A stretch of DNA of 64,000 nucleotides from a bacterium (lineage in GTDB: Bacteria; Patescibacteriota; Minisyncoccia; JAHIHE01): NCBI GenBank assembly GCA_030693205.1, contig JAUYBG010000006.1, positions 68,015 through 132,014 of the forward strand, in the 5' to 3' direction. Shown here piece after piece: positions 19,598-37,730 of the stretch. Every line of letters starts with the position of its first letter. The first letter of the stretch is position 1. Under the pieces are notes generated by a model, which was not told the origin of the DNA, searched no databases, and saw only the letters and a program-made list of their open reading frames with translations. The position numbers and the translations under genes are program-made.

Positions 19598-20173
19598 ATG
19601 ACGTCAATAACAATCAACCTTATTATCAAAAATCCGGGAAAATTACTTGCCGCTAAAAACGCATTTAGTAAATATGGAATTTTAATAAACCAAATTAATA
19701 AAGAATTCCCCGAAATTCAAGCGGACACAAGCTTGGAAATAGCTAAATATACAGCAATACAAGCTGCTAAAGAATTTAAAATGCCTATGATCAGAGAAGA
19801 CCACAGTATGTTTATAAACGCACTAGGCATTCCCGGTCCATACGCAAATTTTATAGAAAAACATCTGCCAGTTGAAAAATTATTGAAAATTCTTAAGACC
19901 CAAAAAGACAGAAGCGGCTATATGGAAGTTGCAACTGTTTTTGCTGAACCAAACGGCTTTACTTTAGAATATATGTACAAAGTACCTATTTATTTTGAAA
20001 ATAAAATTAATATTCCTGACCCGAAAAATGGCTGGAGCGGAATTATCAGACTCGCAAACGAAACAAGAACATTAACAGAATACCCTGAAGAAGAACGAGT
20101 GAATATATGGAATAAAAATTATATTTCTATCGCTGAATTCTTAATTAAAAATAAAGAAAAATATTTAAAATAA
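19598..20173 (+). CDS. Ham1/RdgB-like non-canonical purine NTP pyrophosphatase
   Basis: NPGKLLAAKNAF, EDHSM and ALGIPGPY blocks resemble the ITPase family. Confidence 0.55.
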   Translation: MTSITINLIIKNPGKLLAAKNAFSKYGILINQINKEFPEIQADTSLEIAKYTAIQAAKEFKMPMIREDHSMFINALGIPGPYANFIEKHLPVEKLLKILKTQKDRSGYMEVATVFAEPNGFTLEYMYKVPIYFENKINIPDPKNGWSGIIRLANETRTLTEYPEEERVNIWNKNYISIAEFLIKNKEKYLK

Positions 20174-20866
20174 TTTTAACATCTCGTTAACCCAATTATA
20201 AACACTTGGATACTTTTTCCACAAACGACTACCTTGTAAAATCAAATCTTTATGATCTGGATAACCGATATTTTTTATTTTTCCATGCAAAGAAATAAAA
20301 TCTTCAGTATCTTGGATTACAGCATTAAACACTTCTGCCATACCCCATAACTTTCCTTGTTCAGTATCCATCTTTCTAGTCTCGGGAAAGTTTTTTTGCA
20401 CAAAATCATAAAATATAAAATGGAGCATTTCGTGAAAAATAGTAAAAAGCTGAAAACTGCGATTATTATAAATAAAAACCTGAAACTCACCTGAATCAAG
20501 AAAACGAGGACAAAAATCAAATATAGAAAAATCGCCAATATATTTTTTCCTTGGCCACGGATACCCATTAAATAACTTACTTACCACTAAAAAGAAATTA
20601 TTTTGTTCTTGATTAATATATTTAATAGTATTTTCACTAAGAATTTTTATTTCTCTGTTATTAGATTTATAAAAATCTATAATGTATTTATTTAAAAATT
20701 TCTTTGGATTTTCAGCTGATTTAATTTCAATAAGTTTCGGATGATACTTCAAAGCTCTTTCCTTCCAAAAATCACACCCTCCAAAATTTGAGCTAAGGTA
20801 AAAATCCCAAGCTTTGACTTGATCTAGTTTTTGATCAAATTTTAATTTTATAATTGGTTGCTTCAT
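20165..20866 (-). CDS. HExxH-motif protein (putative zinc metallopeptidase-like) downstream of radical SAM enzyme A
   Basis: HEMLH motif (TIFHEMLHFIF); same strand, 80 nt after rSAM A. Confidence 0.45.
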   Translation of the reverse strand: MKQPIIKLKFDQKLDQVKAWDFYLSSNFGGCDFWKERALKYHPKLIEIKSAENPKKFLNKYIIDFYKSNNREIKILSENTIKYINQEQNNFFLVVSKLFNGYPWPRKKYIGDFSIFDFCPRFLDSGEFQVFIYNNRSFQLFTIFHEMLHFIFYDFVQKNFPETRKMDTEQGKLWGMAEVFNAVIQDTEDFISLHGKIKNIGYPDHKDLILQGSRLWKKYPSVYNWVNEMLKLF

Positions 20867-20947: not shown

Positions 20948-22336
20948 TTAACTAACCTGCGCTTGCTTATAAAGATCCCAAACAAGCCATTCGAGCGTCA
21001 TTTTCGCATGTACGCAAAAGCGTTTATCGAGTGCCCAAATAGAACCCTCTTCAAGCTCTGCTTGATATGGACAGCCTCCACCACAAATACCTAAAGCAGG
21101 GCAGCTTTGACATTCCGGCATATTCAGAGGCGATCTCATACTCCATTCTCTGAAATCTTTATCATTGCTGATATTAAAGTCGTTGTCGTAGACATTTGTT
21201 GGGAAATATTTCTTTTTACCAACAAACCCATGGCAAACTCCAATATCTCCATCAGGTGCAATCACTATCTGATTGCCCCCAGTTGCTCCGCAGTCAAATG
21301 GCCAAACTGTCTTTTCGATAAAAGCATTCGCTTTTCTCATTATGCGATCTTCGTAGACGCCTCTTTTTCTAAAAACTTGAAAAGCATCAAGAATAAATTT
21401 TGCCGCTCTTTCGTTGTAACCATTATCCATTTTTCCGTCATTACTAATCAGCAGATTTAATCCTAAATTGGATATTCCGCATTCATCCAGTAAAACCCGT
21501 ATGGTAGCGTCGAAATCACGGATACTTGCCTCTGAAAGAGTGCATGACGCACCGATATTCATACCTGCTTCTTTGCAAACCTGAAAGCCTCTTTTGATGT
21601 CTTGATAAACGGGCTCTCCGCTTGCATAGATCCGGCTGGAGTTAGTTGCAAAGTCATCGCCGTCAATTGATATTGAGACCTGAACATCGTGGCTCTTAAG
21701 CATTCTGGCAATCTCGTGATTTAATAAACTTCCATTAGTCACTAGATTAAGGGTTGTTTTTTTGGGAAGCTTACCACTTTCCATGTACTTTTTAATCTTA
21801 TTTAAAAGCATCTCAAGTACTGTCCAATTCAACAAGGGCTCTCCGCCATAAAAAACAATTGTTTTTTCTAGATCAAACTGTTCAGGATCTTCTGCAATTA
21901 ATCGACAAAAGAAATCAAGTCCTTTAAAAGCTATCTCCTCTGTCATATTACCCATGGGATTATTATTTTTTACAAAACAATAACCGCAACGGAAATTACA
22001 CCTTTCTGTTAGGATGACATAGGCTAAGTGGGGATAAGGCTTGCCAAGCAAATCCATGAAATAATCAATAGCTTTTTTATCTTCTGCGGGATCCTGGATC
22101 AAAACTTTTACATTTTTAAGGGCATCAACCGCTCTTAAAAAAGTTTCTTGATCTTTTGAGCCAACAAGCGCGAGTAGGCTTTGCGAATCAGCGCCTCCCT
22201 CAAATTTCTTAATTATCGGCAGAAGCGCATCCGGAATATAAACTGGCATCATCCGAAGAGAATGATAGCAAGCTATTACAGGTTTTTGCTCAAAAAAATG
22301 AGCGTATCTTGAAAGGAAAAGGGTTGTTCTTTCCAT
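20948..22336 (-). CDS. radical SAM/SPASM peptide-modifying enzyme A with an N-terminal RRE-like domain
   Basis: CNFRCGYC (CxxxCxxC); C-terminal SPASM cysteines (CGATGGNQ...CHGF...CQSCPALGICGGGCPYQ); AGGAGG ahead of the ATG. Confidence 0.8.
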   Translation of the reverse strand: MERTTLFLSRYAHFFEQKPVIACYHSLRMMPVYIPDALLPIIKKFEGGADSQSLLALVGSKDQETFLRAVDALKNVKVLIQDPAEDKKAIDYFMDLLGKPYPHLAYVILTERCNFRCGYCFVKNNNPMGNMTEEIAFKGLDFFCRLIAEDPEQFDLEKTIVFYGGEPLLNWTVLEMLLNKIKKYMESGKLPKKTTLNLVTNGSLLNHEIARMLKSHDVQVSISIDGDDFATNSSRIYASGEPVYQDIKRGFQVCKEAGMNIGASCTLSEASIRDFDATIRVLLDECGISNLGLNLLISNDGKMDNGYNERAAKFILDAFQVFRKRGVYEDRIMRKANAFIEKTVWPFDCGATGGNQIVIAPDGDIGVCHGFVGKKKYFPTNVYDNDFNISNDKDFREWSMRSPLNMPECQSCPALGICGGGCPYQAELEEGSIWALDKRFCVHAKMTLEWLVWDLYKQAQVS

Positions 22337-22433
22337 ACATTACCTCCTTTATTTCTATATAATCTATTTTCCTTTATTCGAACAAGGAAGGAGAAACCTT
22401 TGCTTCCCCATCCCTATTCGGCCGAACAGGTTT

Positions 22434-22577
22434 TTACCATAGCGATTTATCTATGCCCTTGTTGTATCTACATGCGCACTTACACGCACATGTACCACAT
22501 TTGGCTGCATGTACAGTATTTGCAGCATTACCTAGCACCTTAGCGGCATCTACCGCTGTTGGCGAAATAACATCCAT
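22434..22577 (-). CDS. candidate precursor peptide A (47 aa, five Cys)
   Basis: Unannotated ORF MDVISPTAVDAAKVLGNAANTVHAAKCGTCACKCACRYNKGIDKSLW; AGGAGG nine nt upstream; 97 nt upstream of rSAM A. Confidence 0.55.
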   Translation of the reverse strand: MDVISPTAVDAAKVLGNAANTVHAAKCGTCACKCACRYNKGIDKSLW

Positions 22578-22595
22578 TTTTACATCCTCCTGTAT

Positions 22596-22684
22596 GTTTT
22601 AAAAGAACTCATCTGGCTAAATAGCTTCTATTTAGCCATCCTTCCTTGAGCACAACTCTAACAAATCCGGGAGTTTTGTCAATG
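22596..22684 (-). promoter_or_regulatory. conserved promoter plus 5'-UTR hairpin element, copy A
   Basis: Minus-strand TTGACA-16nt-TAGAGT, then a 10-bp-stem hairpin ggctaaatag/ctatttagcc and agatgagttcttttaaaa before the SD; copies at 29237-29322 and 31934-32019. Confidence 0.5.
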
Positions 22685-22780: not shown

Positions 22781-23098
22781 CTATTTTTCCACAATATCTA
22801 CGATTTTAATTTCGGTAAAAGGCTGTTTGTGCCCTTTGTGAACTCTTTGGCGTTCCTTTGCCTTGTATTTGGTCAAAGTCACTTTTGGCAATCTTCCTTG
22901 TTTCAAGACATCGCCGGTCACTTTCGCGCCTTTGATGACAGGAGTGCCAATGACCGTCTTGCCGTCATTGTTAATAAGCAAAACATTGTTAAAATCAATC
23001 TTATCGCCTTCCTTGACGCTTAATTTTTCCACTTTAATTTTATCGCCGGGAGAAACCAAATACTGCTTCGCTCCGGATTCAATCACTGCAATTTTCAT
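22781..23098 (-). CDS. rplU: 50S ribosomal protein L21
   Basis: Typical L21 sequence (MKIAVIESGAKQYLV...). Confidence 0.9.
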   Translation of the reverse strand: MKIAVIESGAKQYLVSPGDKIKVEKLSVKEGDKIDFNNVLLINNDGKTVIGTPVIKGAKVTGDVLKQGRLPKVTLTKYKAKERQRVHKGHKQPFTEIKIVDIVEK

Positions 23099-24562: not shown

Positions 24563-25984
24563 TTATGGATTAACGTTGATCTGAACTCTATCCATAATAG
24601 GACCGTAACAACCATTCTTACTAGTTATTCTTAACCACCCCTCATACTTACCAGCTGCCGCATATGTCGTCGATGTCATACCTCCAGTATATGTTACATC
24701 AAATAATGCATTACCGAGAACACCTAAAACACCAAGTAATAAATCACAATTCGTTGTTTCACTTTTTGCATAATCTGATGTCCATCCTAACCATGGGGTA
24801 GTATAATCGATCTCATATCTATCTACCCCGTTATCAAAACCCGGACCATCACTGAGAACATCGGTTTTTAAATTTGGATAAGCATAGTCCGCTGAATAAG
24901 TTCTTCCATCGAAATAAACAGTTTCACCCACTTTAACGCTTACTTGTTTTCCCATAGGCATAAAAGTTGTCCCTACCCTTAAATCCGCTTTCATACAATG
25001 ATACAACCCATCGCTTGCCCAAGACGGATTTGAACAAATATCTTTGCAGGCAAGCTTTCCCGAAACAAAAATTTTCGCCGGATGTCGCGGGTAATCGGTT
25101 GCGATGCAGGCAGGAACTCCGGTAGCGGTAAAATTTACTACATTACTGGCAATAAAAGTTGAGCTGGAATACGGATCAGTTTCCGGAAAAATCGCCTGAA
25201 GTTTTACATCATCGGCACAAAATGTAGGAAGCGTAGACAAAATAGAAAAAATACCGCTAGCGTTCGTTTGTATTTGAGTATATCTCATTCCATCAATTCC
25301 TGCCCCATCATTAATAACATATACTCTTATATTGGTGTTAACCACGGGATTACCGCTTGCATCAGTAAGCTTCCCTGCCAGAGTTACAGAAGCGCCAACA
25401 GCCGCGGATGCTCCGTCTGCGGGAGAGGTTAAAGTGATTTTAGCGGGAGCATTAGGACTGACAAAAACATCTGCTTCCATATTATCTATGCAATGGCACG
25501 GCGCATTAACTGTTCCATTTCCCAATGAACCGGGTCCATCGCACATCTCAAGCGGATCGCTTGCCGTCGGACTATAACCTACCGCACTCCACGGCATCGC
25601 CGGATTTTTAAGCACTAGAATATCGGGGTTGATCGTGTTAATAATCACCCAAGAAGAAATGGCCAGAAGAAGGCCGATAATTGCCGAATTAATCGTGTGT
25701 TTGGCATCTTCGATGGCTGAAGGATTGCCGGCGGAAGTCAGATATCTTGCGCCCCCGATGACGATCGCGCCCATCGCCACAATACCGACTACGGAAATAA
25801 GAAAAGTATAAAGCCCGGAAAGATAGACTTGAACTTTTGCGCCGGGTGGAATGCCGGGAATAGTGACCAAAGCGTTATAAGTTGTCTGAGCTAAAGCGGA
25901 ATTCGAATAAAAAAATAAGCTTAGTAAAAATATAATGCTAGCTAAAACTATTTTTTTGTTTTTGCTAAAAATTTTTAAAATCAT
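24563..25984 (-). CDS. large secreted/membrane protein with an N-terminal TrbC/VirB2-like (T4SS pilin-like) domain
   Basis: Signal peptide; YLSGLYTFLISVVGIVAMGAIVIGGARYLTSAGNPSAIEDAKHTINSAIIGLLLAISSWVI pattern typical of CPR pilin-like proteins; large extracellular C-terminus. Confidence 0.45.
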   Translation of the reverse strand: MILKIFSKNKKIVLASIIFLLSLFFYSNSALAQTTYNALVTIPGIPPGAKVQVYLSGLYTFLISVVGIVAMGAIVIGGARYLTSAGNPSAIEDAKHTINSAIIGLLLAISSWVIINTINPDILVLKNPAMPWSAVGYSPTASDPLEMCDGPGSLGNGTVNAPCHCIDNMEADVFVSPNAPAKITLTSPADGASAAVGASVTLAGKLTDASGNPVVNTNIRVYVINDGAGIDGMRYTQIQTNASGIFSILSTLPTFCADDVKLQAIFPETDPYSSSTFIASNVVNFTATGVPACIATDYPRHPAKIFVSGKLACKDICSNPSWASDGLYHCMKADLRVGTTFMPMGKQVSVKVGETVYFDGRTYSADYAYPNLKTDVLSDGPGFDNGVDRYEIDYTTPWLGWTSDYAKSETTNCDLLLGVLGVLGNALFDVTYTGGMTSTTYAAAGKYEGWLRITSKNGCYGPIMDRVQINVNP

Positions 25985-26014: not shown

Positions 26015-26172
26015 TTATACAATTATTGGGGTTTTTAGACAAGCGTGAACTATATATTTTCCCAAATTTTATCTTTATCTTTATCTTCCTGCCGCACCGG
26101 CAAAATTACGGTAAAAGTCGAGCCTTTACCTTCCCCTTCCGAGATTACCTTAATTTTTCCGTGACAGTACTT
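26015..26172 (-). pseudogene. histidine kinase 3'-end fragment, copy 1
   Basis: DNA-level homology to the last ~50 codons of the HK gene at 32065-34050 (cctgccgcaccggcaaaattacggtaaaagtcgagcc...); the +strand track ORF 26026-26220 is a wrong-strand artefact. Confidence 0.5.
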
Positions 26173-26850
26173 TTATTTTTTCTTTCCAATAATAATTACT
26201 CGCCGACTATTAATATTTAATTTCTCCATATCATAATTTCCATATACTGAAGATATGAATAAGTTATTATCGTTAAACTTTCTTTTAAGTTCTGGAAAAG
26301 TATAATACCTTACTCCTTTATTACTATGATCTTTGTCTACGACAAGCTCCATCTTGGTAAAATCAAATTTATATGGAGCTTTCGGATTTTCTCTTAAATA
26401 GCCGATAACCCTAAATACATTATCGCAGTCCAGTAAAAACATTCCATTCTTTTCCATTATTTTAGTAATATTTTTCAATGTTTCGTCAGGCTCAATCATT
26501 CTAAGATCAGAAAAAAATAAGAATATTTTATTATACTTTTTTTTAAGATCTAATTTATGAATATCCTGTGTAAAAAAATTTATCTCTAAATTTTCTTGTT
26601 TGGCGTGCTTTTTGGCAACCTCGATCAAATAATCGGAAAAATCCAAACCATCAATATTATATCCTCTTTTTTTAAGCTCAATAGTATGCCGTCCGTTACC
26701 GCAAGCAACATCTAATATCTTGTCTCTCTTTTTTAATTTTAAGGATTTAATAAGAAAATCAACGTCTTTTTGCAGCTGTTCCGGGGAAAAATATTCTTTA
26801 TGCTCTTCTAGATAAGAACCTTTTGGACCATAATACCGTTTTAGACTCAT
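26173..26850 (-). CDS. class I SAM-dependent methyltransferase
   Basis: Motif I (ILDVACGNGRH) and post-I acidic residue. Confidence 0.8.
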   Translation of the reverse strand: MSLKRYYGPKGSYLEEHKEYFSPEQLQKDVDFLIKSLKLKKRDKILDVACGNGRHTIELKKRGYNIDGLDFSDYLIEVAKKHAKQENLEINFFTQDIHKLDLKKKYNKIFLFFSDLRMIEPDETLKNITKIMEKNGMFLLDCDNVFRVIGYLRENPKAPYKFDFTKMELVVDKDHSNKGVRYYTFPELKRKFNDNNLFISSVYGNYDMEKLNINSRRVIIIGKKK

Positions 26851-26864
26851 AATTTTATTTATAA

Positions 26865-27608
26865 TTATATTTTTACTCCAACAATAATCATTCTCTTGCT
26901 GTTAAAATCAAAATTCTCTCCTTCATAAGATCCATAAACTTTTTTTATCCTTAAACCATTTTCTTCTAAGATTTTTTTAATTTCTGGAAAAGAATACAGT
27001 CTTAAAATATATTCGGATTTTTTTTGTTTTCCTTTTTCTGTAATTTTTAGTTTTACATGGTCTTGGAAAGTAATTGGATTAAAAGCATGATTTTCCAAAA
27101 TATTTTTTTTACCATTTTTGTATTTAAAAACACTTTTAAAATGAGATAAAAAATAACAAATATTCCGAGTGTCAATTATAAATTTCCCTTTACGATTTAA
27201 TGATTTAGAAATATTTTCAATAATTTTTCTGTTGTCGCTATCGCTAAAATATCCGAATGAAGTAAAAAGATTAAGAATAACATCAAATCTTTTTTTAAAT
27301 AAAAACTTACAAATATCCCCATAAATAAAATCTGCTTTAACGCCTTTTTCTTTGGCAATATTTTTTCCAACTCTTAAAAAAGGTTTTGAATAATCAATGC
27401 CCACCACATTATATCCTCTTTCTGCTAATCCAATCATATGTCTGCCCCAGCCACAACATAAATCTAAAATTTTGTCTTCTTTTTTTAATCTTAAAATATT
27501 AATGATAAAATCAATTTCTTTTTTGGTTCTCTTGTCGTCAAAAAGAAAATAATAAAGCTCTAAATAATCTTTATTAAAATAGTATTTCCACCAATTATTT
27601 TTAATCAT
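26865..27608 (-). CDS. class I SAM-dependent methyltransferase, paralog of 26173-26850
   Basis: ILDLCCGWGRHMIGLAERGYNVVGIDYS. Confidence 0.8.
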   Translation of the reverse strand: MIKNNWWKYYFNKDYLELYYFLFDDKRTKKEIDFIINILRLKKEDKILDLCCGWGRHMIGLAERGYNVVGIDYSKPFLRVGKNIAKEKGVKADFIYGDICKFLFKKRFDVILNLFTSFGYFSDSDNRKIIENISKSLNRKGKFIIDTRNICYFLSHFKSVFKYKNGKKNILENHAFNPITFQDHVKLKITEKGKQKKSEYILRLYSFPEIKKILEENGLRIKKVYGSYEGENFDFNSKRMIIVGVKI

Positions 27609-27681: not shown

Positions 27682-27707
27682 AACTGTAAAATTTGAATTT
27701 TACAGTT
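27682..27707 (-). terminator. hairpin plus T-rich tract at the stop of rSAM B
   Basis: aactgtaaaat/attttacagtt perfect inverted repeat. Confidence 0.35.
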
Positions 27708-29025
27708 ATAAACTTTTTAAATTCCAGCAAGTCTGATCGGCATGAACATCATCGCCAAATTTTGACATAGATATTCCCTTGCATCCTCCATTGCACGACA
27801 AAGAAAATTTACATACTAGACATTCTTGTACTATATCCATCGAAAACGGATTTGTTTTTTCCCAAATCGAACGGATATTATTATTCGTCAAATTTCCTAA
27901 AACCGGAAGTCGCGAATGTGGACAAGGAGTAATTTTTCCGTCGAAAGTTATATTACAAATACTTCTTCCTGCTTCACATCCTCTTATTGCTTTTATAGAT
28001 TGATCTATAAGAAAAGGAAAAAATACCAATTTCTCGTAAGAAATCATTTTGGGGTATTTTTTTTCTAACAAAACCAATGTTTCGGTCGCGATTCTGAGTT
28101 GGTCGCTTGTTAATTTAGAAAGAGAATTTGCTCTTCCTTCTTGCATACATCTAAAAGCAATAAACCAGTCTATTCCTAAATCATAAACAGCTAAAAATGT
28201 TTCTTCTATTTTATCAAAGTTTAGATTATTAACCGTCATTGCGCAGCGAACATTCATTCCCTGATTTTTAAGAATCGTAATCGCTCTAATGGCTTTTTCG
28301 TATACTCCTTTTCCTCGAATAAAATCGTGTATCGTTTCTGGACCATCAATGCTTACTTGAATTACCGATAAACCTGTTCTCGATAGTTTTGCCGCTCTTC
28401 TTTTAGTTACCAATATTCCATTGGTGCTAAGCGAAACGCTGACACCTTCTTTCGTTGCTCTTTCGATTATTTCATCAAGGCAACAGACAAGCAATGGCTC
28501 TCCGCCACCAAGACCAAGATAGAATATTCCATTATCCAATAGCTGCTTTTCTATCGCAAATATTTGCTCTGCAGATAAAGCATTTTTTGTTAAACCAGAT
28601 CCTGTATAGCAATGCTTGCATCTTAAATTACAAAGATCAGTTAATTCCCAAAAAACTATTGAAGGGAATTTTAATTTGGGAAATACAATAGGTTTATCGT
28701 CTGTATTATTGGAAAATTTTTTAGTTGATAATATTATGCGTCTATTACAGCTATCAAATAAACCAATTTCTCCAATCTGATTTACGAAAGCAATAATTGT
28801 TTCATCGTTTATATTTTTATGCCTTCTTTTTATTTCCTGAACAATGTCACTAAGACTGATTTCTCCTGTGCATAATTCTATAATTTCTATTCCAATTTTA
28901 TTTACCCGAAAACATATTTGATCAGTTTCTATGGCTAGCTCTACTGGCGGTTTAACTAATCCACCAAAATTTTCTCTGCGATGGCGTACCCCTTTTGTCA
29001 AGTGTGGCTTAAAATCTTGTTCCAT
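27706..29025 (-). CDS. radical SAM/SPASM enzyme B with an N-terminal PqqD-like RiPP recognition element
   Basis: N-terminus (VNKIGIEIIELCTGEISLSDIVQEI) is PqqD-like; CNLRCKHC; SPASM C-terminus (CLVCKFSLSCNGGCKG). Confidence 0.8.
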   Translation of the reverse strand: MEQDFKPHLTKGVRHRRENFGGLVKPPVELAIETDQICFRVNKIGIEIIELCTGEISLSDIVQEIKRRHKNINDETIIAFVNQIGEIGLFDSCNRRIILSTKKFSNNTDDKPIVFPKLKFPSIVFWELTDLCNLRCKHCYTGSGLTKNALSAEQIFAIEKQLLDNGIFYLGLGGGEPLLVCCLDEIIERATKEGVSVSLSTNGILVTKRRAAKLSRTGLSVIQVSIDGPETIHDFIRGKGVYEKAIRAITILKNQGMNVRCAMTVNNLNFDKIEETFLAVYDLGIDWFIAFRCMQEGRANSLSKLTSDQLRIATETLVLLEKKYPKMISYEKLVFFPFLIDQSIKAIRGCEAGRSICNITFDGKITPCPHSRLPVLGNLTNNNIRSIWEKTNPFSMDIVQECLVCKFSLSCNGGCKGISMSKFGDDVHADQTCWNLKSL

Positions 29026-29111: not shown

Positions 29112-29219
29112 CTAATCTCCGGCATAAGTTGGGAGCATTACGCATCCTGTAGATATCCTTTCTATTACTGGACTTTCTTGCTCCGAATCTTTCTCTGTCT
29201 TAGAATTTTCTAAACCCAT
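29112..29219 (-). CDS. candidate precursor peptide B (35 aa)
   Basis: MGLENSKTEKDSEQESPVIERISTGCVMLPTYAGD; gaggaggtgaaaaaATG; hairpin ggaattattg/caataattcc between it and rSAM B. Confidence 0.5.
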   Translation of the reverse strand: MGLENSKTEKDSEQESPVIERISTGCVMLPTYAGD

Positions 29220-29236: not shown

Positions 29237-29322
29237 TTTTAAAAGAACTCATCTGGCTAAATAGTTTCTATTTAGCCATCCTTCCTTGCGTATAACCCTA
29301 GCAAATCCAGGGGTTTTGTCAA
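29237..29322 (-). promoter_or_regulatory. conserved promoter plus 5'-UTR hairpin element, copy B
   Basis: TTGACA-16nt-TAGGGT and the same hairpin, with loop tttc instead of gctt. Confidence 0.5.
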
Positions 29323-29334
29323 ATACTGACTCCC

Positions 29335-29580
29335 GCTGATTACTTATATTGGGGTTTTTAGACAAGCACGAACTATATATATTCCCAAATTTTATCTTTA
29401 TCTTCCTGCCGCACCGGCAAAATTACGGTAAAAGTCGAGCCCGCGCCTTCCCCTTCCGAGACCACCTTAATTTTTCCGCCATGCTTGGCTATGATCTGCT
29501 TGGCGATAAAAAGTCCCAGGCCGGAACCGTTCGGATTGATATAATTGGATTTTTTCCCGCGTGAAAATTTTTGAAAAATC
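29335..29580 (-). pseudogene. histidine kinase 3'-end fragment, copy 2
   Basis: ~240 bp homologous to the last ~75 codons of HK 32065-34050 (ATP-lid to C-terminus), with the stop region mutated. Confidence 0.55.
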
Positions 29581-30332
29581 TATTTTAGACCACCTTTCCA
29601 TTCCTTTTCTAATTCTTCGATCGATTTTTCGAAACCATTTTCAATAATTTTTAAATTTTCCTCGGAATTATTTAATCGCGACAATCTTTGGTAAGTTTTT
29701 TTAAACTTATCCCATCCGTAAGTATTGATTAAAAATCTGACAAAAGAGCCAACTTCCGGATAAATTATTTTAGAATCAACCTTTTCCCAATTTTTATTAT
29801 CAATTAAGTTTTTGATAGAATACAGTTTTTTCTGACTCAATAACTCTTTGGAAATTATATCAATATCCTTACCGAATAAATTTCCTTCCATAAACTGAGC
29901 TAATCCCTCGCAAAACAAATATATCGATAACCCAAGGGATAAAGACAAAAAATGAGTATCTTCATGCTCGCCGATAAACTGGCATTTATCATTATAAATC
30001 GTATGAATTTCAAATTTGTTTGTTTTTGGTTCGCTATTAACTAATTCAAAATCTCCCCAAATCACATTACCAGGGCTGTCATCGCCCATTAAAGATGCTT
30101 TGCTTTTTAAGGACGGATAAATATAATAATGAATAATTTGCTTATTTTTTAAATCAAGAAACGATAAAATTTTATTGTGATGTTTTTCTTTTAGCTTAAT
30201 AATTTTATAAATATCATTTTCAGCTAAAGAATTTTTGAGATAGTAAAAAACATAATGGTTGCTTTTTTGTTTAATCCATTTTTGCCTCAAATAATCGTTT
30301 TTATACCACGGAATTTCTTGTTTTATTTTCAT
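29580..30332 (-). CDS. HExxH-motif protein downstream of radical SAM enzyme C
   Basis: IGEHEDTHF motif; 250 aa; directly after rSAM C. Confidence 0.45.
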   Translation of the reverse strand: MKIKQEIPWYKNDYLRQKWIKQKSNHYVFYYLKNSLAENDIYKIIKLKEKHHNKILSFLDLKNKQIIHYYIYPSLKSKASLMGDDSPGNVIWGDFELVNSEPKTNKFEIHTIYNDKCQFIGEHEDTHFLSLSLGLSIYLFCEGLAQFMEGNLFGKDIDIISKELLSQKKLYSIKNLIDNKNWEKVDSKIIYPEVGSFVRFLINTYGWDKFKKTYQRLSRLNNSEENLKIIENGFEKSIEELEKEWKGGLK

Positions 30333-30406: not shown

Positions 30407-31909
30407 TTATTCAAAGTTTAATTTTACTAATCCCTTATTTATTTTTTCCACAAGTTCACGCCTGCAATATGGTTCTAATAGACTACCTATTGTTACATAG
30501 GCATCAAACCGACATCCTCCGCCACAAATAGGAACGAACGGGCAATCTTCTGAAAGACATTTATCCAGATAGCTAAAATCCATAAATTTTGCATCATCGG
30601 TATTAGCCGTTGAATCTATGTTTCCAAAAGAAAATCCATCTCTTCCTACTGTGCTTATGCATTTAAGCAATGCTCCGTCTGGCTCTATTGTAGCCGAATT
30701 TATAGCTCTCGCGGTACACCAAGGACCGACTAAATATTCTTGAGGAATTACAAATCCTCTTTTCTTTGCTTCCTTGCAAAGCCACAGATATTTATCAGCG
30801 CTCTCGCTAAAACTTAATCCAAATTCATTAAGGTAAGAGTCCGGCGCTCGCTTGCCCATATCTCCGCAAATAGTTGGAGCCACTATACCAAAAGAGAATT
30901 CTATTTTATCCTGCAGTTTATTTTCTGCCAAAAAATCAAACAGCTGCGGTATTAAATCAACATTCTGCCGGTCAAAATTGACTCTAAGGTGAATTTTTTT
31001 AACAAAACCTTGATTTATAGAACTCAAGATATTTTTTGAAATTTTATCAAATGTACCCTTGCCGTCTTTTCTGAACCTTCTTAAGTCGTGTACTTTTCCG
31101 TATCCATCAAGAGTTATCTGAACTCTATCAAGGTTGCATCCGTTTAAGAAAGAGGCAATTTCTTTATCAAAAAATTCACCATTTGTCATTATGCCGAGTT
31201 CAAGTGCTAAGTTTTTTTGCTTGGCTATCGTGTGCAGTTTTGGCAAAATAAATCTGATTGTCTTTTTATTCAATAACGGCTCGCCCCCGTACAGAACTAC
31301 TCTTAGCTTATTGCAACCAGCATGGTTACCTAGATAAGCATCACACCAATTCACTATTTCATCGGCTATTTGAATTGACATTGATTTATGTTTTTCTATT
31401 CCTCTCTCGAAACAGTAAGGGCAGGCCAGCTGGCAATTTCTAGTAAGGACAAGATATATTCCGAAAGTTTTATCATCCAATCTGGCCTTATGGAATAGCT
31501 CTTTGTATTTTAGCTTTTCGTTTAATTCCGCAGGAACGAGCATTTCCATTTTTACGAGCTCATTTATGTAATCGCCTAAATACGAACCAGTAATATTAGA
31601 TTGTCCATTGTTTGTAATTTCATCGATTTCTCTTTTTAGCCGTCCGGTTAATCTTACTGTGCTTGTAGTCAGCGTATTTCTAGCGATGATTTTATCGCTG
31701 TTTTCATATTCAATCCAAAACACAAATCGAGACCATTTCAGTTTCACATCGTTCACCTCTTTGTCATTGATATATTTTTGGGGAAGTTTTATTAAACCTC
31801 CCCCTTTGCTTATGCGGTTAATAACCGCAGCCATCTTTACCCATATCGCCGGTACGGGTTCCGGAATCAGTGCCTTTTTGGAGCACTTCAAAATCTTGGT
31901 TGCCGTCAT
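30407..31909 (-). CDS. radical SAM/SPASM enzyme C
   Basis: CQLACPYC; SPASM (CLSEDCPFVPICGGGCRFD). The track start (31909) overlaps candidate precursor C; the true start may be M26 (31834) or similar. Confidence 0.75.
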   Translation of the reverse strand: MTATKILKCSKKALIPEPVPAIWVKMAAVINRISKGGGLIKLPQKYINDKEVNDVKLKWSRFVFWIEYENSDKIIARNTLTTSTVRLTGRLKREIDEITNNGQSNITGSYLGDYINELVKMEMLVPAELNEKLKYKELFHKARLDDKTFGIYLVLTRNCQLACPYCFERGIEKHKSMSIQIADEIVNWCDAYLGNHAGCNKLRVVLYGGEPLLNKKTIRFILPKLHTIAKQKNLALELGIMTNGEFFDKEIASFLNGCNLDRVQITLDGYGKVHDLRRFRKDGKGTFDKISKNILSSINQGFVKKIHLRVNFDRQNVDLIPQLFDFLAENKLQDKIEFSFGIVAPTICGDMGKRAPDSYLNEFGLSFSESADKYLWLCKEAKKRGFVIPQEYLVGPWCTARAINSATIEPDGALLKCISTVGRDGFSFGNIDSTANTDDAKFMDFSYLDKCLSEDCPFVPICGGGCRFDAYVTIGSLLEPYCRRELVEKINKGLVKLNFE

Positions 31910-31916
31910 TGCTCAT
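31818..31916 (-). CDS. candidate precursor peptide C (32 aa)
   Basis: MSNDGNQDFEVLQKGTDSGTRTGDMGKDGCGY; the same gaggaggtgaaaaaATG context as precursor B. Confidence 0.45.
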   Translation of the reverse strand: MSNDGNQDFEVLQKGTDSGTRTGDMGKDGCGY

Positions 31917-31933: not shown

Positions 31934-32019
31934 TTTTAAAAGAACTCATCTGACTAAATAGCTTCTATTTGGTCATCCTTCCTTACAATAACCTTAACAA
32001 ATCTCAATAATTTGTCAAT
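31934..32019 (-). promoter_or_regulatory. conserved promoter plus 5'-UTR hairpin element, copy C
   Basis: TTGACA-16nt-TAAGGT; hairpin gaccaaatag/ctatttagtc (one mismatch). Confidence 0.5.
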
Positions 32020-32064
32020 CTTTAGCTTTAATGTACAAGTTATAGATTTTGCAAGTTTTATCCC

Positions 32065-34050
32065 CTATCTTCCCTGCCGCACCGGCAAAGACACGATAAA
32101 AGTCGAACCTTTGCCTTCCCCCTCCGAGATTACTTTGATTTTTCCGTGATGCTTAGCTATGATCTGCTTGGCGATAAAAAGTCCCAGGCCGGAACCGTTC
32201 GGATTGATATAATTGGATTTTTTCCCGCGGGAAAATTTCTGAAAAAGAATTTTTTTATCATCCCCGCTCAAGCCTATGCCCGTATCAGTAAAATAAATAT
32301 TCACGTTATCTTTCTCCCGCTTAACTTCAATAATCAATCCGCCTTTTTCGGTATATTTTTCTGCGTTATCTATTAAGTTCATAAAAACATTGTGAAGAAG
32401 CTTTTCGTCAGCTTCGATCTTCGGAATCTTCTGGGAAGATCTTTTGTATTTCAAATATAAATTCTTTTTTTTGAAATTAAGATTAAGCATTTCGATATTT
32501 TCCTGAAGCATCTTCCGTATATCAATTGGCTGAAAATTCAATTTTAACTCCCCTTCGCTTTCCGTCGCTGTCACCATATCGTTGACGATATTGTTAAGAC
32601 GCTCTGTATTATCCACGATTCTCGCTTTTACTTCCAACTTTTTTTCCGGAGTAGCTTTGTCAAAATCCTTGGCATTCCACATTGAAATAAATCCCCGCAT
32701 TACAGTCAAGGGAGTCCTAAGCTGGTGAGAGACGATATGTAAAAAATCACTCTTCACATCCAATGCGTTTTTAAGCTTGTCTTTGGCTATAGTAAGCTCT
32801 TCGATATTTTTATTCAAATTTTGATAAAATTGAAGGTTATCCATAACTACGCTTACATGCTGGGTAAAAGCATTGATTAGATCTAAATCTCTCGGGCTGA
32901 CTTCCGTAATTTCTTTGGTAAAAATAAAAATCAAAGCTCCTTTTTTCTCGCCTCTGATTGTCATTGGAACCGATGCGAATGTTTTTCCGCCAAGTTTCTC
33001 TTGTATCAATAGGGACGTGGGCTTATCCAACGGCGGACAAATAAAATCCGCTATGTTCGACCCTTTTTCAATTTCGTTATTGAGAATACTTTTGATAACC
33101 AGACCGCAATTTTTAGAATTTTTGCTATCAACAATCAAGCTGTAATCGCTTAATTCAGGCTTAGATAATAAACACCTTGCTTGCCTCATTTTATCTGATT
33201 CTGTGGTAATATAAGCGCAAGCTTTTCCACTATCTTCATCGTAGCGAATTAAAAATGTTCCCATAATACCAAGATGCCCGAGTTTTGCCGGCACAGCATC
33301 CATAATATTCTGCACGCTTTTTTCAATTTCCACTCCCAAAGAAACCATTTTGTTTAAAGACAGAAGGGATTCCAAATCCTGCGTTTTTTCCTCAAGATTT
33401 TTTAATTGATTTCTAATTTGTTCGTATTGACGAATATTATTGATTGCAATAGCCACTTGATCAGAAAAAGTTTTAAGCATTTCCTGCTCTTCTTGAGAAA
33501 ATTCTTTTCTGGTTGAGGTAAAGAATACTACTCCCAAAATTTTGTCTAAAAATATAACAGGAAGAGAAATACAAAGATTCATGCCCATAAATTTCTGCAT
33601 AGTATCAGCCAATGATGCATTTACAGCGGGACTGATAAATTCACTCATATGTGCCCCTACATGAATTTTTCTTGTAAGGTAAGTTTGTACGGTTAAATTA
33701 TCATCAAGATTTAATGGGTAAGTGTGTTCTTTGAATGGCTTATTCAGCCATCCGACAACTTTTTGGCCTAAATATGATTGCGTATAAGACCAAGGTATAA
33801 GTTGCTTATTAATTTCGTCAGGTAAAAACAACACTCCTCCTATGAAATCCATCTCTTCAACCATAACGTTCACCATCTTTTGGGTCAATGCTTCATAATC
33901 TTTGATAGTAACAAGCATAGAGAATATTTTCTGCAAAGTCTTGTAGCGCATCTCTTTTGAGGTTGGTTTTTCTACAAGTCTACCTTTAAATCTATCGGTA
34001 TCAATGTTTGGGAAGATAAGCTTTCTTATTATACCTTGGATTAAGTTCAT
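32065..34050 (-). CDS. cytoplasmic sensor histidine kinase (GAF-GAF-HisKA-HATPase)
   Basis: H-box HQLRTPL; N, G1, G2 boxes (NLIDNAEKYT, DTGIGLS, GSGLGLFIAKQII); no TM segments. Confidence 0.85.
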   Translation of the reverse strand: MNLIQGIIRKLIFPNIDTDRFKGRLVEKPTSKEMRYKTLQKIFSMLVTIKDYEALTQKMVNVMVEEMDFIGGVLFLPDEINKQLIPWSYTQSYLGQKVVGWLNKPFKEHTYPLNLDDNLTVQTYLTRKIHVGAHMSEFISPAVNASLADTMQKFMGMNLCISLPVIFLDKILGVVFFTSTRKEFSQEEQEMLKTFSDQVAIAINNIRQYEQIRNQLKNLEEKTQDLESLLSLNKMVSLGVEIEKSVQNIMDAVPAKLGHLGIMGTFLIRYDEDSGKACAYITTESDKMRQARCLLSKPELSDYSLIVDSKNSKNCGLVIKSILNNEIEKGSNIADFICPPLDKPTSLLIQEKLGGKTFASVPMTIRGEKKGALIFIFTKEITEVSPRDLDLINAFTQHVSVVMDNLQFYQNLNKNIEELTIAKDKLKNALDVKSDFLHIVSHQLRTPLTVMRGFISMWNAKDFDKATPEKKLEVKARIVDNTERLNNIVNDMVTATESEGELKLNFQPIDIRKMLQENIEMLNLNFKKKNLYLKYKRSSQKIPKIEADEKLLHNVFMNLIDNAEKYTEKGGLIIEVKREKDNVNIYFTDTGIGLSGDDKKILFQKFSRGKKSNYINPNGSGLGLFIAKQIIAKHHGKIKVISEGEGKGSTFIVSLPVRQGR

Positions 34051-35000
34051 TTGTTTTTTAGGTTATCGGCTAAATCTTGATAAGCAGTTAAAATTTCCAG
34101 AGGAAAAACAGGAGAGAATACTTCTATCAAAATTTTAAGCTGAGCCCTTCTGAGATTCCCTAAATTATCTTTATAGTTTGGAAGGTGTTTTTTTGCGAGC
34201 TTTAACATATTTTTCATTTCTGTTAATTCAGGCAACTTTTGAGTATAAAAATTAAGCTCGCCTTTTTCTTGTTCTTCCTTCCAATCATGCAAATAAATTG
34301 CCGGAGCATAAGCAATTGACCATAATTCTGCTAATGTTAAATTTTCAGTAGGCTCAACGGAGAAAAAAAATTCTTGTATAGTTTTGGTAGTCATCCAATA
34401 AGGAATATCTCTGAGTTTTAAAATGTCACCAGCAACCTCTTTATCTACATACTCTACCCCAAGTTTTTTATACTCGGAAAGATAACTGTGTTGTTCGTTC
34501 TCTGTCCCTGCAAGTTGAATTAAACCTCCATACATTAATCTTTTAAGACCATTATTAAAACCTGTCACATTTTTGATTCTAGAAGCCGCTATTATATCAA
34601 CAAATTCACCTAAACCCTTCACCGAATTAACTAAAGAACGAATATCATTTCGTTTTTCTTTCATTTGCTGAGGAGTTGGAGGAAAATCAGATCTATCAAA
34701 AAAATCATCAATAAAATGTGTAGCAAACGCCAGATACGCCTTCTTACACATCTCTTCCTTGTCGTTAGAAGGAATAGCCATAATAAATGCTTGTATTTTC
34801 GAATCATTAAATCCGTGAACCGAACTTGTATGAAAAAAATCATTGAATCCAATTAATGCAACATCTCGTTTAAATTGCATTTCAGCTTTATTTACTGCTC
34901 TCATTATTTGATTCGATTCTTTCACTCTAGAGAAAAGCTTTTGTAATTTATCTATGTGTGATATTTCTATACCTTTACGAAACCCAATCATAGACTCCAT
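34047..35000 (-). CDS. hypothetical protein, stop overlaps the HK start; contains a DDxxD motif
   Basis: 317 aa; FIDDFFD motif. Confidence 0.45.
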   Translation of the reverse strand: MESMIGFRKGIEISHIDKLQKLFSRVKESNQIMRAVNKAEMQFKRDVALIGFNDFFHTSSVHGFNDSKIQAFIMAIPSNDKEEMCKKAYLAFATHFIDDFFDRSDFPPTPQQMKEKRNDIRSLVNSVKGLGEFVDIIAASRIKNVTGFNNGLKRLMYGGLIQLAGTENEQHSYLSEYKKLGVEYVDKEVAGDILKLRDIPYWMTTKTIQEFFFSVEPTENLTLAELWSIAYAPAIYLHDWKEEQEKGELNFYTQKLPELTEMKNMLKLAKKHLPNYKDNLGNLRRAQLKILIEVFSPVFPLEILTAYQDLADNLKNK

Positions 35001-35087: not shown

Positions 35088-35303
35088 CTAAATAAACCCA
35101 CCTTGTTTTCCCACTTTCTCATACTCCTTCACCCATTTTTGCAACTCCGCCGGCAATTTCACGTTTTTAACTTCCTCAATTTCTTTTTCGATCCTCTTTG
35201 GGGTCAATTCTCTTAATATTCCGCAAACTACCGGATATTTTCTCTGCTCCGCCTTGGTAAAACCGTAATAATTAAGAAGCGATTGTGTTTTTTCTTTAGC
35301 CAT
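35088..35303 (-). CDS. small hypothetical protein (71 aa)
   Basis: Start at [15 protein letters not shown]; a truncated paralog lies at 37325-37447. Confidence 0.4.
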
Positions 35304-35389
35304 TTTAAAAAAATTATTAATTAAGTTCTCTTTTTCCTCCCTTGGTAAGCCGTAGCCTTGGCGCAAGGTGACTATCCTGCAAATTTTAA

Positions 35390-35742: not shown

Positions 35743-37185
35743 TCAATACGTTATTCCGCATGCTTCGTTTGAGTATGCAGAACCGCCAATGTTATTTGTT
35801 GCTTTTAGGCGGTAGCAGTATTGAGTCATCGACGAAAGAGAAGAATTTATCCAATACCATTTCCCTGCTCCGGGCAAAAGTTCATCATATGCTCCGACAA
35901 GAGCCCCAAAACTGCCAAGAGATACCCAACTTCCACCTGTGCCAGTTTTTCTTTCTATCCAAATATTGGTTTCGTCATATGTATTATCGGTAAAATTCAC
36001 TTGCAAACTAGTCGCTGTTGGATTTGTAACCGATACATTACTTGGTGCATCAGGCACTTGACCATTATATGTCCATGATTGTGTTCCCGGCACAGCGGTA
36101 CTCCACGCGGGAATTAGAGTATAAATTTTATATTTCGCACTGCACCAAGTTGTGTAACAAAAACTTGGACTACGATACCCGACCTGCCCTTGAAGCTTAA
36201 ACTTGTCAGACGCATCATTTCCGTCAGCAGTACGAATATATGTGTAATAATTTGTATTTGCTTGCAAGGCATCTGCTTGAGCAGCTCCTATTGTATAAGA
36301 TAACTCATCAATTTCACAACCAATTCCTTTTGTTGGTTCCATAAATCTGGTATCAATATATGGTTTAGATGCTGCTGGCCAACTAGTAGCTGCATAAGTT
36401 GTTGTCGGGTAACACCCGGGATATGATGTGCTATTCCCGTCTAAATATGTTTTTCTGTCGTAATTATAAAGAATAATTTTATGCTCATAAGTCTGGTCGG
36501 AAGCAAAATTTATTGTATTCCATATCATATTTTGTTGCGTGTATCTTCCACCATAGGAAGAAGGATAGAAATATGAAGTACCAGAGGTTGGGAGTGACAG
36601 GTACATCGGTGTTGTCGTTAATGCTGCGGTACTTATAGTTTCACTACCTGAAAGGTACGCTTCTTTTGGAGCAGTTTTCCCGCGAGTTTGCAGAGCAATA
36701 TCATGCTGATTATTTTTGACATTGATCTTGTCTACTACAAGACCTTTTTTAATTTGATCGATACTGCTGTTCTCGCCTGTTACCGTGATTTTCGTTATTA
36801 AAATATTTTCGATATTACCAGAACTGCCGGACGATAACTGGTTAATACCTTTAACATCAGCAAGGAATGCTTTGCGGTTTTTTATATAATCTTCTTTGAT
36901 GTTTTTTTTGTTTTTAGGATCAACCACGTAAAAATCATGAACGGCTTCGTTATTAACCGTAAAGTTGCTTTCTAATATTATTTCATCAAAGAAAGTATTG
37001 TTTCCTCCTGCAAAAAGCGCATCTAGCGCAATAGGATTTTTAAGTTCAATTTGAACAGTTGAGGTGTTGTTTTTAAGCAAACCTGCATCTCCCGCTTTTG
37101 CCTGCGTTAGTTGTGAATAGTCGAAGCCGGACGCAAGCGCAGTTATTGCAAGCGCAAACACTATGACATAGTAGATATTTTTCAT
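35743..37185 (-). CDS. secreted protein with a C-terminal fibronectin-III-like domain
   Basis: Signal peptide, Asn/Thr/Ser-rich; C-terminus VSVTNPTATSLQVNF...YCYRLKATN. Confidence 0.55.
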   Translation of the reverse strand: MKNIYYVIVFALAITALASGFDYSQLTQAKAGDAGLLKNNTSTVQIELKNPIALDALFAGGNNTFFDEIILESNFTVNNEAVHDFYVVDPKNKKNIKEDYIKNRKAFLADVKGINQLSSGSSGNIENILITKITVTGENSSIDQIKKGLVVDKINVKNNQHDIALQTRGKTAPKEAYLSGSETISTAALTTTPMYLSLPTSGTSYFYPSSYGGRYTQQNMIWNTINFASDQTYEHKIILYNYDRKTYLDGNSTSYPGCYPTTTYAATSWPAASKPYIDTRFMEPTKGIGCEIDELSYTIGAAQADALQANTNYYTYIRTADGNDASDKFKLQGQVGYRSPSFCYTTWCSAKYKIYTLIPAWSTAVPGTQSWTYNGQVPDAPSNVSVTNPTATSLQVNFTDNTYDETNIWIERKTGTGGSWVSLGSFGALVGAYDELLPGAGKWYWINSSLSSMTQYCYRLKATNNIGGSAYSNEACGITY

Positions 37186-37324
37186 AAATGTGAATATTTT
37201 TAATTAATAAAAAACTTTAGTTTTGATCATATCCTAAAATAAACCCTGATGACATACGGTTAATTTTACAACATATTTTTTATTTCAGTTAAAAACTTTA
37301 ATTTTAATTTTTAACTTCCTCGAT

Positions 37325-37447
37325 TTATTTTTCAATCCTTCCCGGAATTAATTCCCCCAGAATTCCCGCCACCACCGGATATTTTTTCTGCTCCATTGCT
37401 GTAAAACCATAATAACCGAGAAGCGATTCTGTTTTTTCTTTAGCCAT
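37325..37447 (-). pseudogene. truncated duplicate of the 35088-35303 gene
   Basis: MAKEKTESLLGYYGFTAMEQKKYPVVAGILGELIPGRIEK then stop; flanking DNA also conserved. Confidence 0.4.
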
Positions 37448-37730
37448 TTTAAAAAAAATATTAATTAAACTTTTTTCTCATTTTTAATTTCCTTTTCTCG
37501 AACTTCTTTATTAACTTTATCAACATTCTGTAAAATTTTATCGTCCATTATAAATTTTTTACAAATTAATCCTTTGATTTTCATTTTTTAGATTATACCA
37601 TATTTTGCCAAAATAAACAAAATACCCGTATAACATTAACCAAAAACGGGAATATAGAATGAATTTATACGGAAATAAAAAACTCCAAGAGCAATTCCTG
37701 GATTTTTTATAAATTTAACAATTGTGAGCG

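Follow-up and report, generated by a model that had tools for sequence, protein, structure and literature searches.

In a 64,000-nt stretch of contig JAUYBG010000006.1 from a member of the Patescibacteria (GenBank assembly GCA_030693205.1, positions 68,015 to 132,014 of the forward strand; hereafter the window), we found that a 47-codon open reading frame (ORF) missing from the deposited record is a protein-coding gene under strong purifying selection. Together with the two genes that follow it on the minus strand, this ORF very probably forms a three-gene cassette for a peptide made by ribosomal synthesis and modified post-translationally (RiPP). The cassette would comprise a precursor, a maturase combining a RiPP recognition element (RRE) with radical S-adenosylmethionine (SAM) and SPASM domains, and a protein with an HExxH motif and a zincin fold, and it would represent a Patescibacteria-specific sister group of the FibroRumin family (Table 1). 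Judged from sequence, the adjoining radical SAM enzyme almost certainly modifies the 47-aa peptide.

The minus-strand translation of the ORF agreed exactly with that given in a first-pass annotation of the window, which had proposed a Cys-rich precursor of the SCIFF or ranthipeptide type. Its leader spans approximately residues 1 to 26 and contains P6, a V/I-L-G-N motif and H-A-A/S-K/R; it is followed by the core C27-GTCACKCAC-R37-Y and the peptide ends in W47. An in-frame stop lies seven codons 5′ of the ATG, the stretch from one to the other contains no further start codon, and the radical SAM/SPASM ORF begins 97 nt past the peptide stop on the same strand. The AGGAGG noted ahead of the ATG is present, at a spacing of 8 nt rather than the nine first counted. 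The general idea of that annotation, a leader and a Cys-rich core encoded by a precursor-type gene ahead of an RRE-radical SAM-SPASM maturase, was upheld. The resemblance to substrates with six Cys in forty-five residues was not, since the peptide has five (C27, C30, C32, C34 and C36). Because the window contains dozens of small mechanical ORFs that have four or more Cys, the case for a gene must rest on comparison with other genomes.

A protein search returned four called homologues of the peptide, with 63-74% identity, from unrelated assemblies. Their contigs carry the peptide gene, the radical SAM gene and then, where the contig is long enough (L001), a gene for a protein of about 231 aa. 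A one-genome-per-species scan with alignment of radical SAM homologues provided 80 loci; small Cys-containing ORFs were listed for the 700 nt that precede the enzyme gene at each of them, and the loci were searched by tblastn with the window peptide. Results showed one to three Cys-rich precursors directly upstream of the TIGR04136-type enzyme in most of these loci, with tight co-variation between the type of peptide and the clade of the maturase. An orthologous ORF lay directly upstream in all loci with an enzyme of 62% or higher identity to that of the window, and 12 other Patescibacteria loci (L001/L004, L002, L003, L005-L012 and L017) carried it in the same position. Samples with orthologous contigs are from groundwater, sediment or digesters, two examples being SRR26901924 and JGI 3300014204. 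Preservation in orthologous loci had been set beforehand as the test on which the proposed gene could fail; the ORF was kept wherever the orthologous enzyme is. The core, [KR]CGTC[AD]CKCACR[YQ], was invariant across the orthologous loci, and the leader varied except for P6, (V/I/M)-L-G-N and H-A-(A/S); most of the peptides have P-W at the C-terminus. When the 13 core codons were compared pairwise over the 13 loci, differences at codon positions 1, 2 and 3 numbered 34, 24 and 535 respectively, with 516 synonymous against 36 non-synonymous differences. Such a dominance of third-position differences is the mark of strong purifying selection on a translated gene.

The exact 47-aa sequence was not found in a collection of 15 billion proteins, in agreement with the earlier description of the ORF as unannotated. 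Three neighbours from the same contig of 138,567 bp are in that collection, namely the flanking ribosomal protein L21 (MDP3057149.1), the radical SAM enzyme, recorded as 'MAG: SPASM domain-containing protein [bacterium]', and, as Q8N37_01320, the hypothetical protein downstream of it; thus the gene was not annotated in the deposited record. A profile built from the four called peptides gave a single match among 1.84 billion representatives, which indicates that the subfamily is rarely called and that the profile misses canonical members at library-wide E-values.

Family assignment was based on NCBIfam models for both partners. The top model of the enzyme was TIGR04136 ('FibroRumin system radical SAM peptide maturase'), with 386.9 bits and an E-value of 1.3e-115 over residues 8-457 of 462, aligned to positions 1-455 of the 458 of the model. 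The next models were far behind (PapB, 155 bits; nif11 maturase, 124; CefB, 116; SCIFF maturase TIGR03974, 100.1; thioether-forming QhpD, also about 100), and cyclophane formers and anSME were among the remaining matches. Patescibacteria relatives about 50% identical to the enzyme carry the NCBI name FibroRumin maturase. For the peptide, the top model was TIGR04135 ('FibroRumin family radical SAM-modified Cys-rich RiPP'), with 19.9 bits and an E-value of 5.5e-4. In a calibration of this model, canonical precursors of Ruminococcus albus 8 and Fibrobacter scored 50-93 bits, and the tested Patescibacteria-type and cyanobacterial (Okeania) precursors 12-19 bits, those of the Patescibacteria type 14-19. 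Alignment by hhalign of a profile of the window clade to 20 canonical precursors gave a probability of 90% (E 1.6e-6) and spanned the leader (LGN opposite FGNI), the core and the C-terminal Trp. Apart from TIGR04135, the peptide scan at E ≤ 1 returned just a thiazolylpeptide model, and no SCIFF precursor model (TIGR03973); an assignment to the thiopeptides was dropped on model scores, the match being weak (E 0.046). On these sequence comparisons, the pair of peptide and enzyme stands as a distant sister to the FibroRumin pair, outside both curated cutoffs.

The definition of the FibroRumin system is bioinformatic and was drawn from Fibrobacter succinogenes and Ruminococcus albus. The family reportedly originates from TIGRFAMs work on radical SAM targets and, as far as we can tell, is purely bioinformatic so far. 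In common with it, the window locus has a precursor directly upstream of the maturase, an x-(L/F)-G-N motif in the leader, a first Cys preceded by a basic residue, a core of CxxCxCxCxC type ending in R, and a C-terminal Trp. It differs in several respects. Canonical loci have two tandem paralogous precursors, whereas the window clade has one, with a shorter core that has five Cys and is invariant (CGTCACKCACRY). In canonical loci the radical SAM gene is followed by a gene for a UvrA-like double ABC ATPase, in the window clade by that for the 233-aa zincin-fold protein. The canonical hosts are rumen Firmicutes and Fibrobacter, here the host is Patescibacteria-like. With SCIFF/thermocellin systems (precursor TIGR03973, CteB-type maturase TIGR03974, structure 5WGG, a ranthipeptide), which typically consist of precursor and maturase only, the locus shares an RRE-radical SAM-SPASM enzyme, a small Cys-rich precursor and a likely Cys thioether chemistry. 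In contrast to them, it leaves the SCIFF family models unmatched, differs in the number and spacing of Cys, and has no SCIFF signature.

The maturase has a radical SAM motif (C113-x3-C117-x2-C120) and a seven-Cys SPASM pattern (C349, C368, C409, C412, C418, C422 and C441), the Cys of both being invariant or nearly so in 56 homologues, and Pfam recognized Radical_SAM, Fer4_12 and SPASM domains. Among proteins of solved structure, the thioether synthase of the SCIFF/thermocellin system, CteB (5WGG), was the closest in sequence, with an E-value of 1e-23 for an alignment that starts at residue 39. An AlphaFold2 model of the enzyme (mean confidence score, pLDDT, 93.2) was compared with known structures by Foldseek and matched TigE (8VPO; E 4.5e-23) and CteB (E 4.7e-22, TM-score 0.77-0.80) over its full length, including the N-terminal domain that binds the leader in those enzymes. 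ChlB, a cyclophane former, and anSME, which produces formylglycine, were more distant structural neighbours. The predicted architecture says that the enzyme is a leader-guided radical SAM/SPASM peptide maturase.

The 233-aa product of the third gene had no Pfam or NCBIfam family match and appears as a minimal single domain. Residues H145-E146-x-x-H149 and E178 were invariant in its homologues, so that the protein has the HExxH motif, the third ligand and, in a confident predicted model, the catalytic fold that define the zincins (MA clan). A Pfam scan of 31 homologues gave just sub-threshold hints of Peptidase_M78 and DUF3267. The homologues in databases are all called hypothetical protein, and nearly all those with a named host are from Patescibacteria. 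A homologue followed the radical SAM gene in every orthologous locus with enough flanking sequence and also in a Patescibacteria clade whose enzymes are 50% identical (L015, L020-L022); at one locus (L056) it stood upstream of the enzyme gene. It was absent from the canonical Firmicutes and Fibrobacter loci. There, 42 canonical FibroRumin loci had the gene for the UvrA-like ATPase (about 710 aa; ABC_tran and UvrA_DNA-bind domains) directly after the radical SAM gene, examples among loci L037-L083 being L040 (4382-6517) and L068 (4498-6675); in L040 a MerR/TipAS regulator lies upstream. We did not see this component in the curated description of the FibroRumin family, and it was absent from the window and its clade; in the canonical loci it might serve self-protection. 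The 233-aa protein is a candidate leader peptidase. It differs both from the zincin leader peptidases of other RiPP systems (e.g. the M1-family lanthipeptide peptidases AplP/EryP) and from the HExxH α-ketoglutarate oxygenases ChlH, BpmH and PflC in being minimal and in matching no Pfam or NCBIfam family. That it is instead an α-ketoglutarate/Fe(II) oxygenase of the ChlH, BpmH or PflC type, modifying the peptide further, seems to us rather improbable.

Three other explanations of the peptide itself have to be weighed. A chance ORF within the 5′ untranslated region (5′-UTR) of the radical SAM gene might be suspected, given the many spurious small Cys-containing ORFs in the window and the two mechanical ORFs that overlap it on the other strand. 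This explanation is already refuted by the third-codon-position pattern and the invariant amino acid core over 13 loci, and the strong Shine-Dalgarno sequence and the independent calling of homologues as genes in other assemblies also speak against it, so that its probability is practically nil. A SCIFF precursor modified by a SCIFF maturase, as the first-pass annotation had suggested, would agree with the comparable size of the peptide, its Cys-rich C-terminal half, the adjoining radical SAM/SPASM gene and the closeness of the enzyme to CteB. The model scores refuted SCIFF membership at the family level, with no precursor match at E ≤ 1 and 100.1 bits on TIGR03974, whose cutoff is 425, against 386.9 on TIGR04136. 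The peptide moreover has five Cys, not six, and its LGN leader, CxxCxCxCxCR core and C-terminal W align with FibroRumin precursors; we therefore regard a SCIFF system as highly improbable. Very unlikely, too, is a metal-binding (metallothionein-like) or Fe-S-donating small protein that is co-transcribed with the enzyme without being its substrate. CxCxCxC arrays do bind metals, and the cassette has no exporter, but the layout of leader plus core, with a conserved recognition motif in a variable leader, argues for a substrate, as do the N-terminal RRE-like domain that the enzyme shares with CteB and TigE and the co-variation of peptide type with maturase clade over the 80 loci. The multiple tandem paralogous precursors of canonical loci, which are typical of RiPPs, point in the same direction.

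If the peptide is the substrate, the nature of its modification is less clear. Thioether cross-linking would be the most likely reaction, in rough balance with other radical chemistry, because the substrate has a dense conserved array of Cys and the enzyme has thioether-forming relatives in PapB, QhpD and CteB; the 'ranthipeptide-like' chemistry first proposed is plausible. The enzyme resembles the PapB/freyrasin and QhpD systems in that PapB is its second-best model and in the SPASM auxiliary-cluster motif common to both. PapB and QhpD join Cys to Asp or Glu side chains. Several points weigh against the assignment to a thioether-forming, FibroRumin-type RiPP system. The enzyme falls 13 bits below the curated TIGR04136 cutoff of 400 bits, and the peptide, at 19.9 bits, below the TIGR04135 cutoff of 45. 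The conserved core contains no acidic acceptor of the kind used by PapB and QhpD, from whose cutoffs the enzyme is also far removed, and no gene for an exporter is found in the cassette. The structural neighbours catalyse different reactions (thioether formation by CteB, cyclopropylglycine formation by TigE, cyclophane formation by ChlB, formylglycine formation by anSME), and hence the fold does not fix the chemistry. No paper on the FibroRumin family, on TIGR04136 or on the canonical core sequences was found in the literature searched, and what was found on Patescibacteria with ranthipeptides or RiPPs consisted of surveys only, so that the chemistry is drawn from more distant relatives. These last two points, together with the cyclophane formers and anSME among the model matches, would also fit a substrate peptide with a non-thioether product, such as C-C cross-links, oxidation of Cys to formylglycine or another modified residue, or epimerization. 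The Cys array is nevertheless the only invariant core feature over all subfamilies, and the second-best model of the enzyme is that of a thioether former, with QhpD and the SCIFF maturases at about 100 bits; we consider a non-thioether product somewhat unlikely.

The sequence ahead of the peptide gene belongs to an 86-nt promoter and 5′-UTR module that occurs three times on the minus strand of the window (22597-22682, 29237-29322 and 31934-32019; 70-91% identity). In each copy, TTGACA-16-TAGAGT comes first, then an 11-bp hairpin, the box GAGTTCTTTTAAAA and GAGGAGG, and each precedes a small ORF and a different radical SAM/SPASM gene. In orthologous loci the layout is TTGACA at the same relative position, a hairpin, the box (A/G)ATGAGTTCWTTNAAAA and then the Shine-Dalgarno sequence (A/G)GGAGGTGA. 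The 86-nt leader folds with a z-score of -3.2. The other two module copies have the same hairpin or a nearly identical one, and a hairpin of different sequence takes the same 5′-UTR place in orthologous loci; the hairpin may act as an mRNA stabiliser or as the site of a regulator. The box occurs three times in the window, always within the module, and was also detected upstream of orthologous peptide genes in L003, L005, L006, L007, L017 and L085. A metagenome scan for the box with a Shine-Dalgarno sequence gave five matches, of which only two were orthologous peptide loci and one, in L086, stood ahead of a WecB-like gene. The box is thus not confined to RiPP genes, and its interpretation as a RiPP-specific regulatory element was dropped; these bacteria may use it as a general leader for strong expression.

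A second hairpin, terminator-like in appearance, lies between the peptide and enzyme genes. The 100-nt intergenic stretch has a folding energy of -28 kcal/mol (z -3.6 against shuffled sequences), and all 13 orthologous loci have a hairpin, of differing sequence, immediately behind the stop codon of the peptide gene. The palindrome TTCGGCCGAA that the first-pass annotation had noticed here is present at 22426-22417, merely as part of this longer structure, whose 5′ arm it overlaps. The hairpin may serve as an attenuator or stabiliser, and the leader and intergenic structures would most simply be explained by a precursor transcript that is short, stable and abundant and is partially read through to the enzyme genes, an arrangement known from many bacteriocin operons. 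A search of the leader and intergenic region against Rfam at a permissive E-value returned nothing relevant, and a scan of the whole window at the gathering thresholds returned only tRNAs.

The other two module copies head cassettes that we call B and C (Table 1). The three radical SAM enzymes of the window are mutually just 21-27% identical, against 70-91% for the promoter modules, and we conclude that the module was copied and not the cassettes; recent duplication of the cassettes was therefore rejected. The exact cassette B peptide was not found in the protein collection. The true start of the cassette C enzyme is probably further downstream than that of its ORF, because the 32-aa ORF overlaps the mechanical 5′ extension of the latter. 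Copies of the 3′ end of a histidine-kinase gene, 80-93% identical, lie at 26024-26161, 29391-29578 and 32059-32246, the full gene being at 32065-34050 on the minus strand. One copy is just upstream of promoter module B, and an orphan fragment lies ahead of a gene similar to type IV secretion system pilins (24563-25984). This arrangement points to segmental duplication of units made of a kinase end plus a promoter. A pilin-like protein of this type in the window, together with the taxonomy of the best matches, suggests a genome of the Patescibacteria or Candidate Phyla Radiation. No response regulator was identified for the kinase, and the adjoining 317-aa ORF (34047-35000) has no family match. 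A pair of intergenic direct repeats (35164-35324 and 37308-37468; 161 nt, 80% identity) lies upstream of the ORFs 34047-35000 and 35743-37185. The upstream neighbour of the RiPP cassette is rplU, and on that strand the cassette takes the place after rplU that usually belongs to its operon partner rpmA (L27). The cassette of L001/L004 adjoins a gene for a LexA/methyltransferase fusion instead, and given these different neighbours it appears mobile between genomic contexts.

Table 1. Positions of the peptide gene, its signals and partners, and the related cassettes and neighbour in the window.
Feature	Position	Strand	Details
Precursor peptide gene	22434-22577	minus	47 aa plus stop; translation MDVISPTAVDAAKVLGNAANTVHAAKCGTCACKCACRYNKGIDKSLW
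Shine-Dalgarno sequence AGGAGG	22586-22591	minus	read directly; 8-nt spacer ATGTAAAA before ATG at 22577
Conserved box GAGTTCTTTTAAAA	22597-22610	minus	between hairpin and Shine-Dalgarno sequence
5′-UTR hairpin	22614-22638	minus	UGGCUAAAUAG-AAG-CUAUUUAGCCA; 11 bp; RNA fold
Putative sigma-70-like promoter	22655-22682	minus	TTGACA, 16 nt, TG-n-TAGAGT; consensus scan 10/12 plus TG extension
Inter-cistronic hairpin, terminator-like	22379-22420	minus	about 18 bp; RNA fold; terminator-like site flagged at 22409-22390
RRE-radical SAM-SPASM peptide maturase (predicted)	20948-22336	minus	462 aa; own Shine-Dalgarno sequence
HExxH zincin-fold protein, candidate leader peptidase	20165-20866	minus	233 aa
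rplU (L21)	22781-23098	minus	upstream neighbour of the RiPP cassette
Cassette B small ORF	about 29112-29219	minus	MGLENSKTEKDSEQESPVIERISTGCVMLPTYAGD; 35 aa, 1 Cys; precursor-like, unannotated
Cassette B radical SAM/SPASM	27706-29025		best model mycofactocin maturase, 128 bits (cutoff 265)
Cassette B SAM methyltransferases	26865-27608 and 26173-26850		
Cassette C small ORF	31818-31916	minus	MSNDGNQDFEVLQKGTDSGTRTGDMGKDGCGY; 32 aa, unannotated; starts at Shine-Dalgarno-associated ATG
Cassette C radical SAM	30407-31909		CefB/geopeptide-like, 202 and 187 bits, both sub-threshold
Cassette C HExxH (HEDTH) protein	29580-30332		250 aa; sub-threshold Peptidase_MA_2 match

Taken as a working model of the RiPP cassette, a sigma-70-type promoter would drive a short mRNA bracketed by the 5′ hairpin and the post-stop hairpin, and the mRNA of the precursor would thereby become plentiful in relation to that of the enzyme. 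Binding of the leader, through P..D..K-V/I-L-G-N, would fall to the RRE-like domain at the N-terminus of the maturase. Reductive cleavage of SAM would then yield a 5′-deoxyadenosyl radical able to abstract a hydrogen atom in the core, where Cys thiols held at an auxiliary [4Fe-4S] cluster may be joined in thioether cross-links within the peptide, in the manner of CteB, PapB and QhpD. Finally, the zincin-fold protein would cut off the leader, perhaps behind the conserved A-(K/R) in front of the first Cys, to leave a cross-linked peptide of about 21 residues, CGTCACKCACRYNKGIDKSLW. Candidate roles of such a product are those of a signal, an antimicrobial or a host-interaction factor.

Our results recover a genuine gene that is missing from the deposited metagenome-assembled genome, as two further small precursor genes in its vicinity probably are; without its precursor, the radical SAM enzyme is labelled there merely 'SPASM domain-containing protein'. 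They extend a known theme and overturn nothing, as a precursor beside a radical SAM/SPASM maturase is what a specialist would expect. The FibroRumin-type family appears to be experimentally untouched, and the window clade has its smallest core (about 21 residues, with five Cys, and invariant) in a three-gene cassette, which makes it a convenient system for heterologous reconstitution; its 233-aa HExxH partner is a candidate new leader peptidase. With three radical SAM-peptide cassettes under a common promoter module, a small genome of the Patescibacteria type also invests noticeably in natural products of peptide nature. All parts could be joined in one reading, which is doubtful as a whole. 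It would posit an uncharacterised RiPP class of the Candidate Phyla Radiation/Patescibacteria, with a radical SAM/SPASM cross-link ladder on the invariant CGTCACKCACRY and an unrecognised minimal zincin family as leader peptidase, plus two unrelated radical SAM-peptide cassettes co-regulated with it, through the copied promoter/5′-UTR module, by the adjacent histidine kinase. If true, this joint reading would mean that an episymbiont with a reduced genome has a small regulon of secreted peptides, which might serve for communication with its host or for attack on it.
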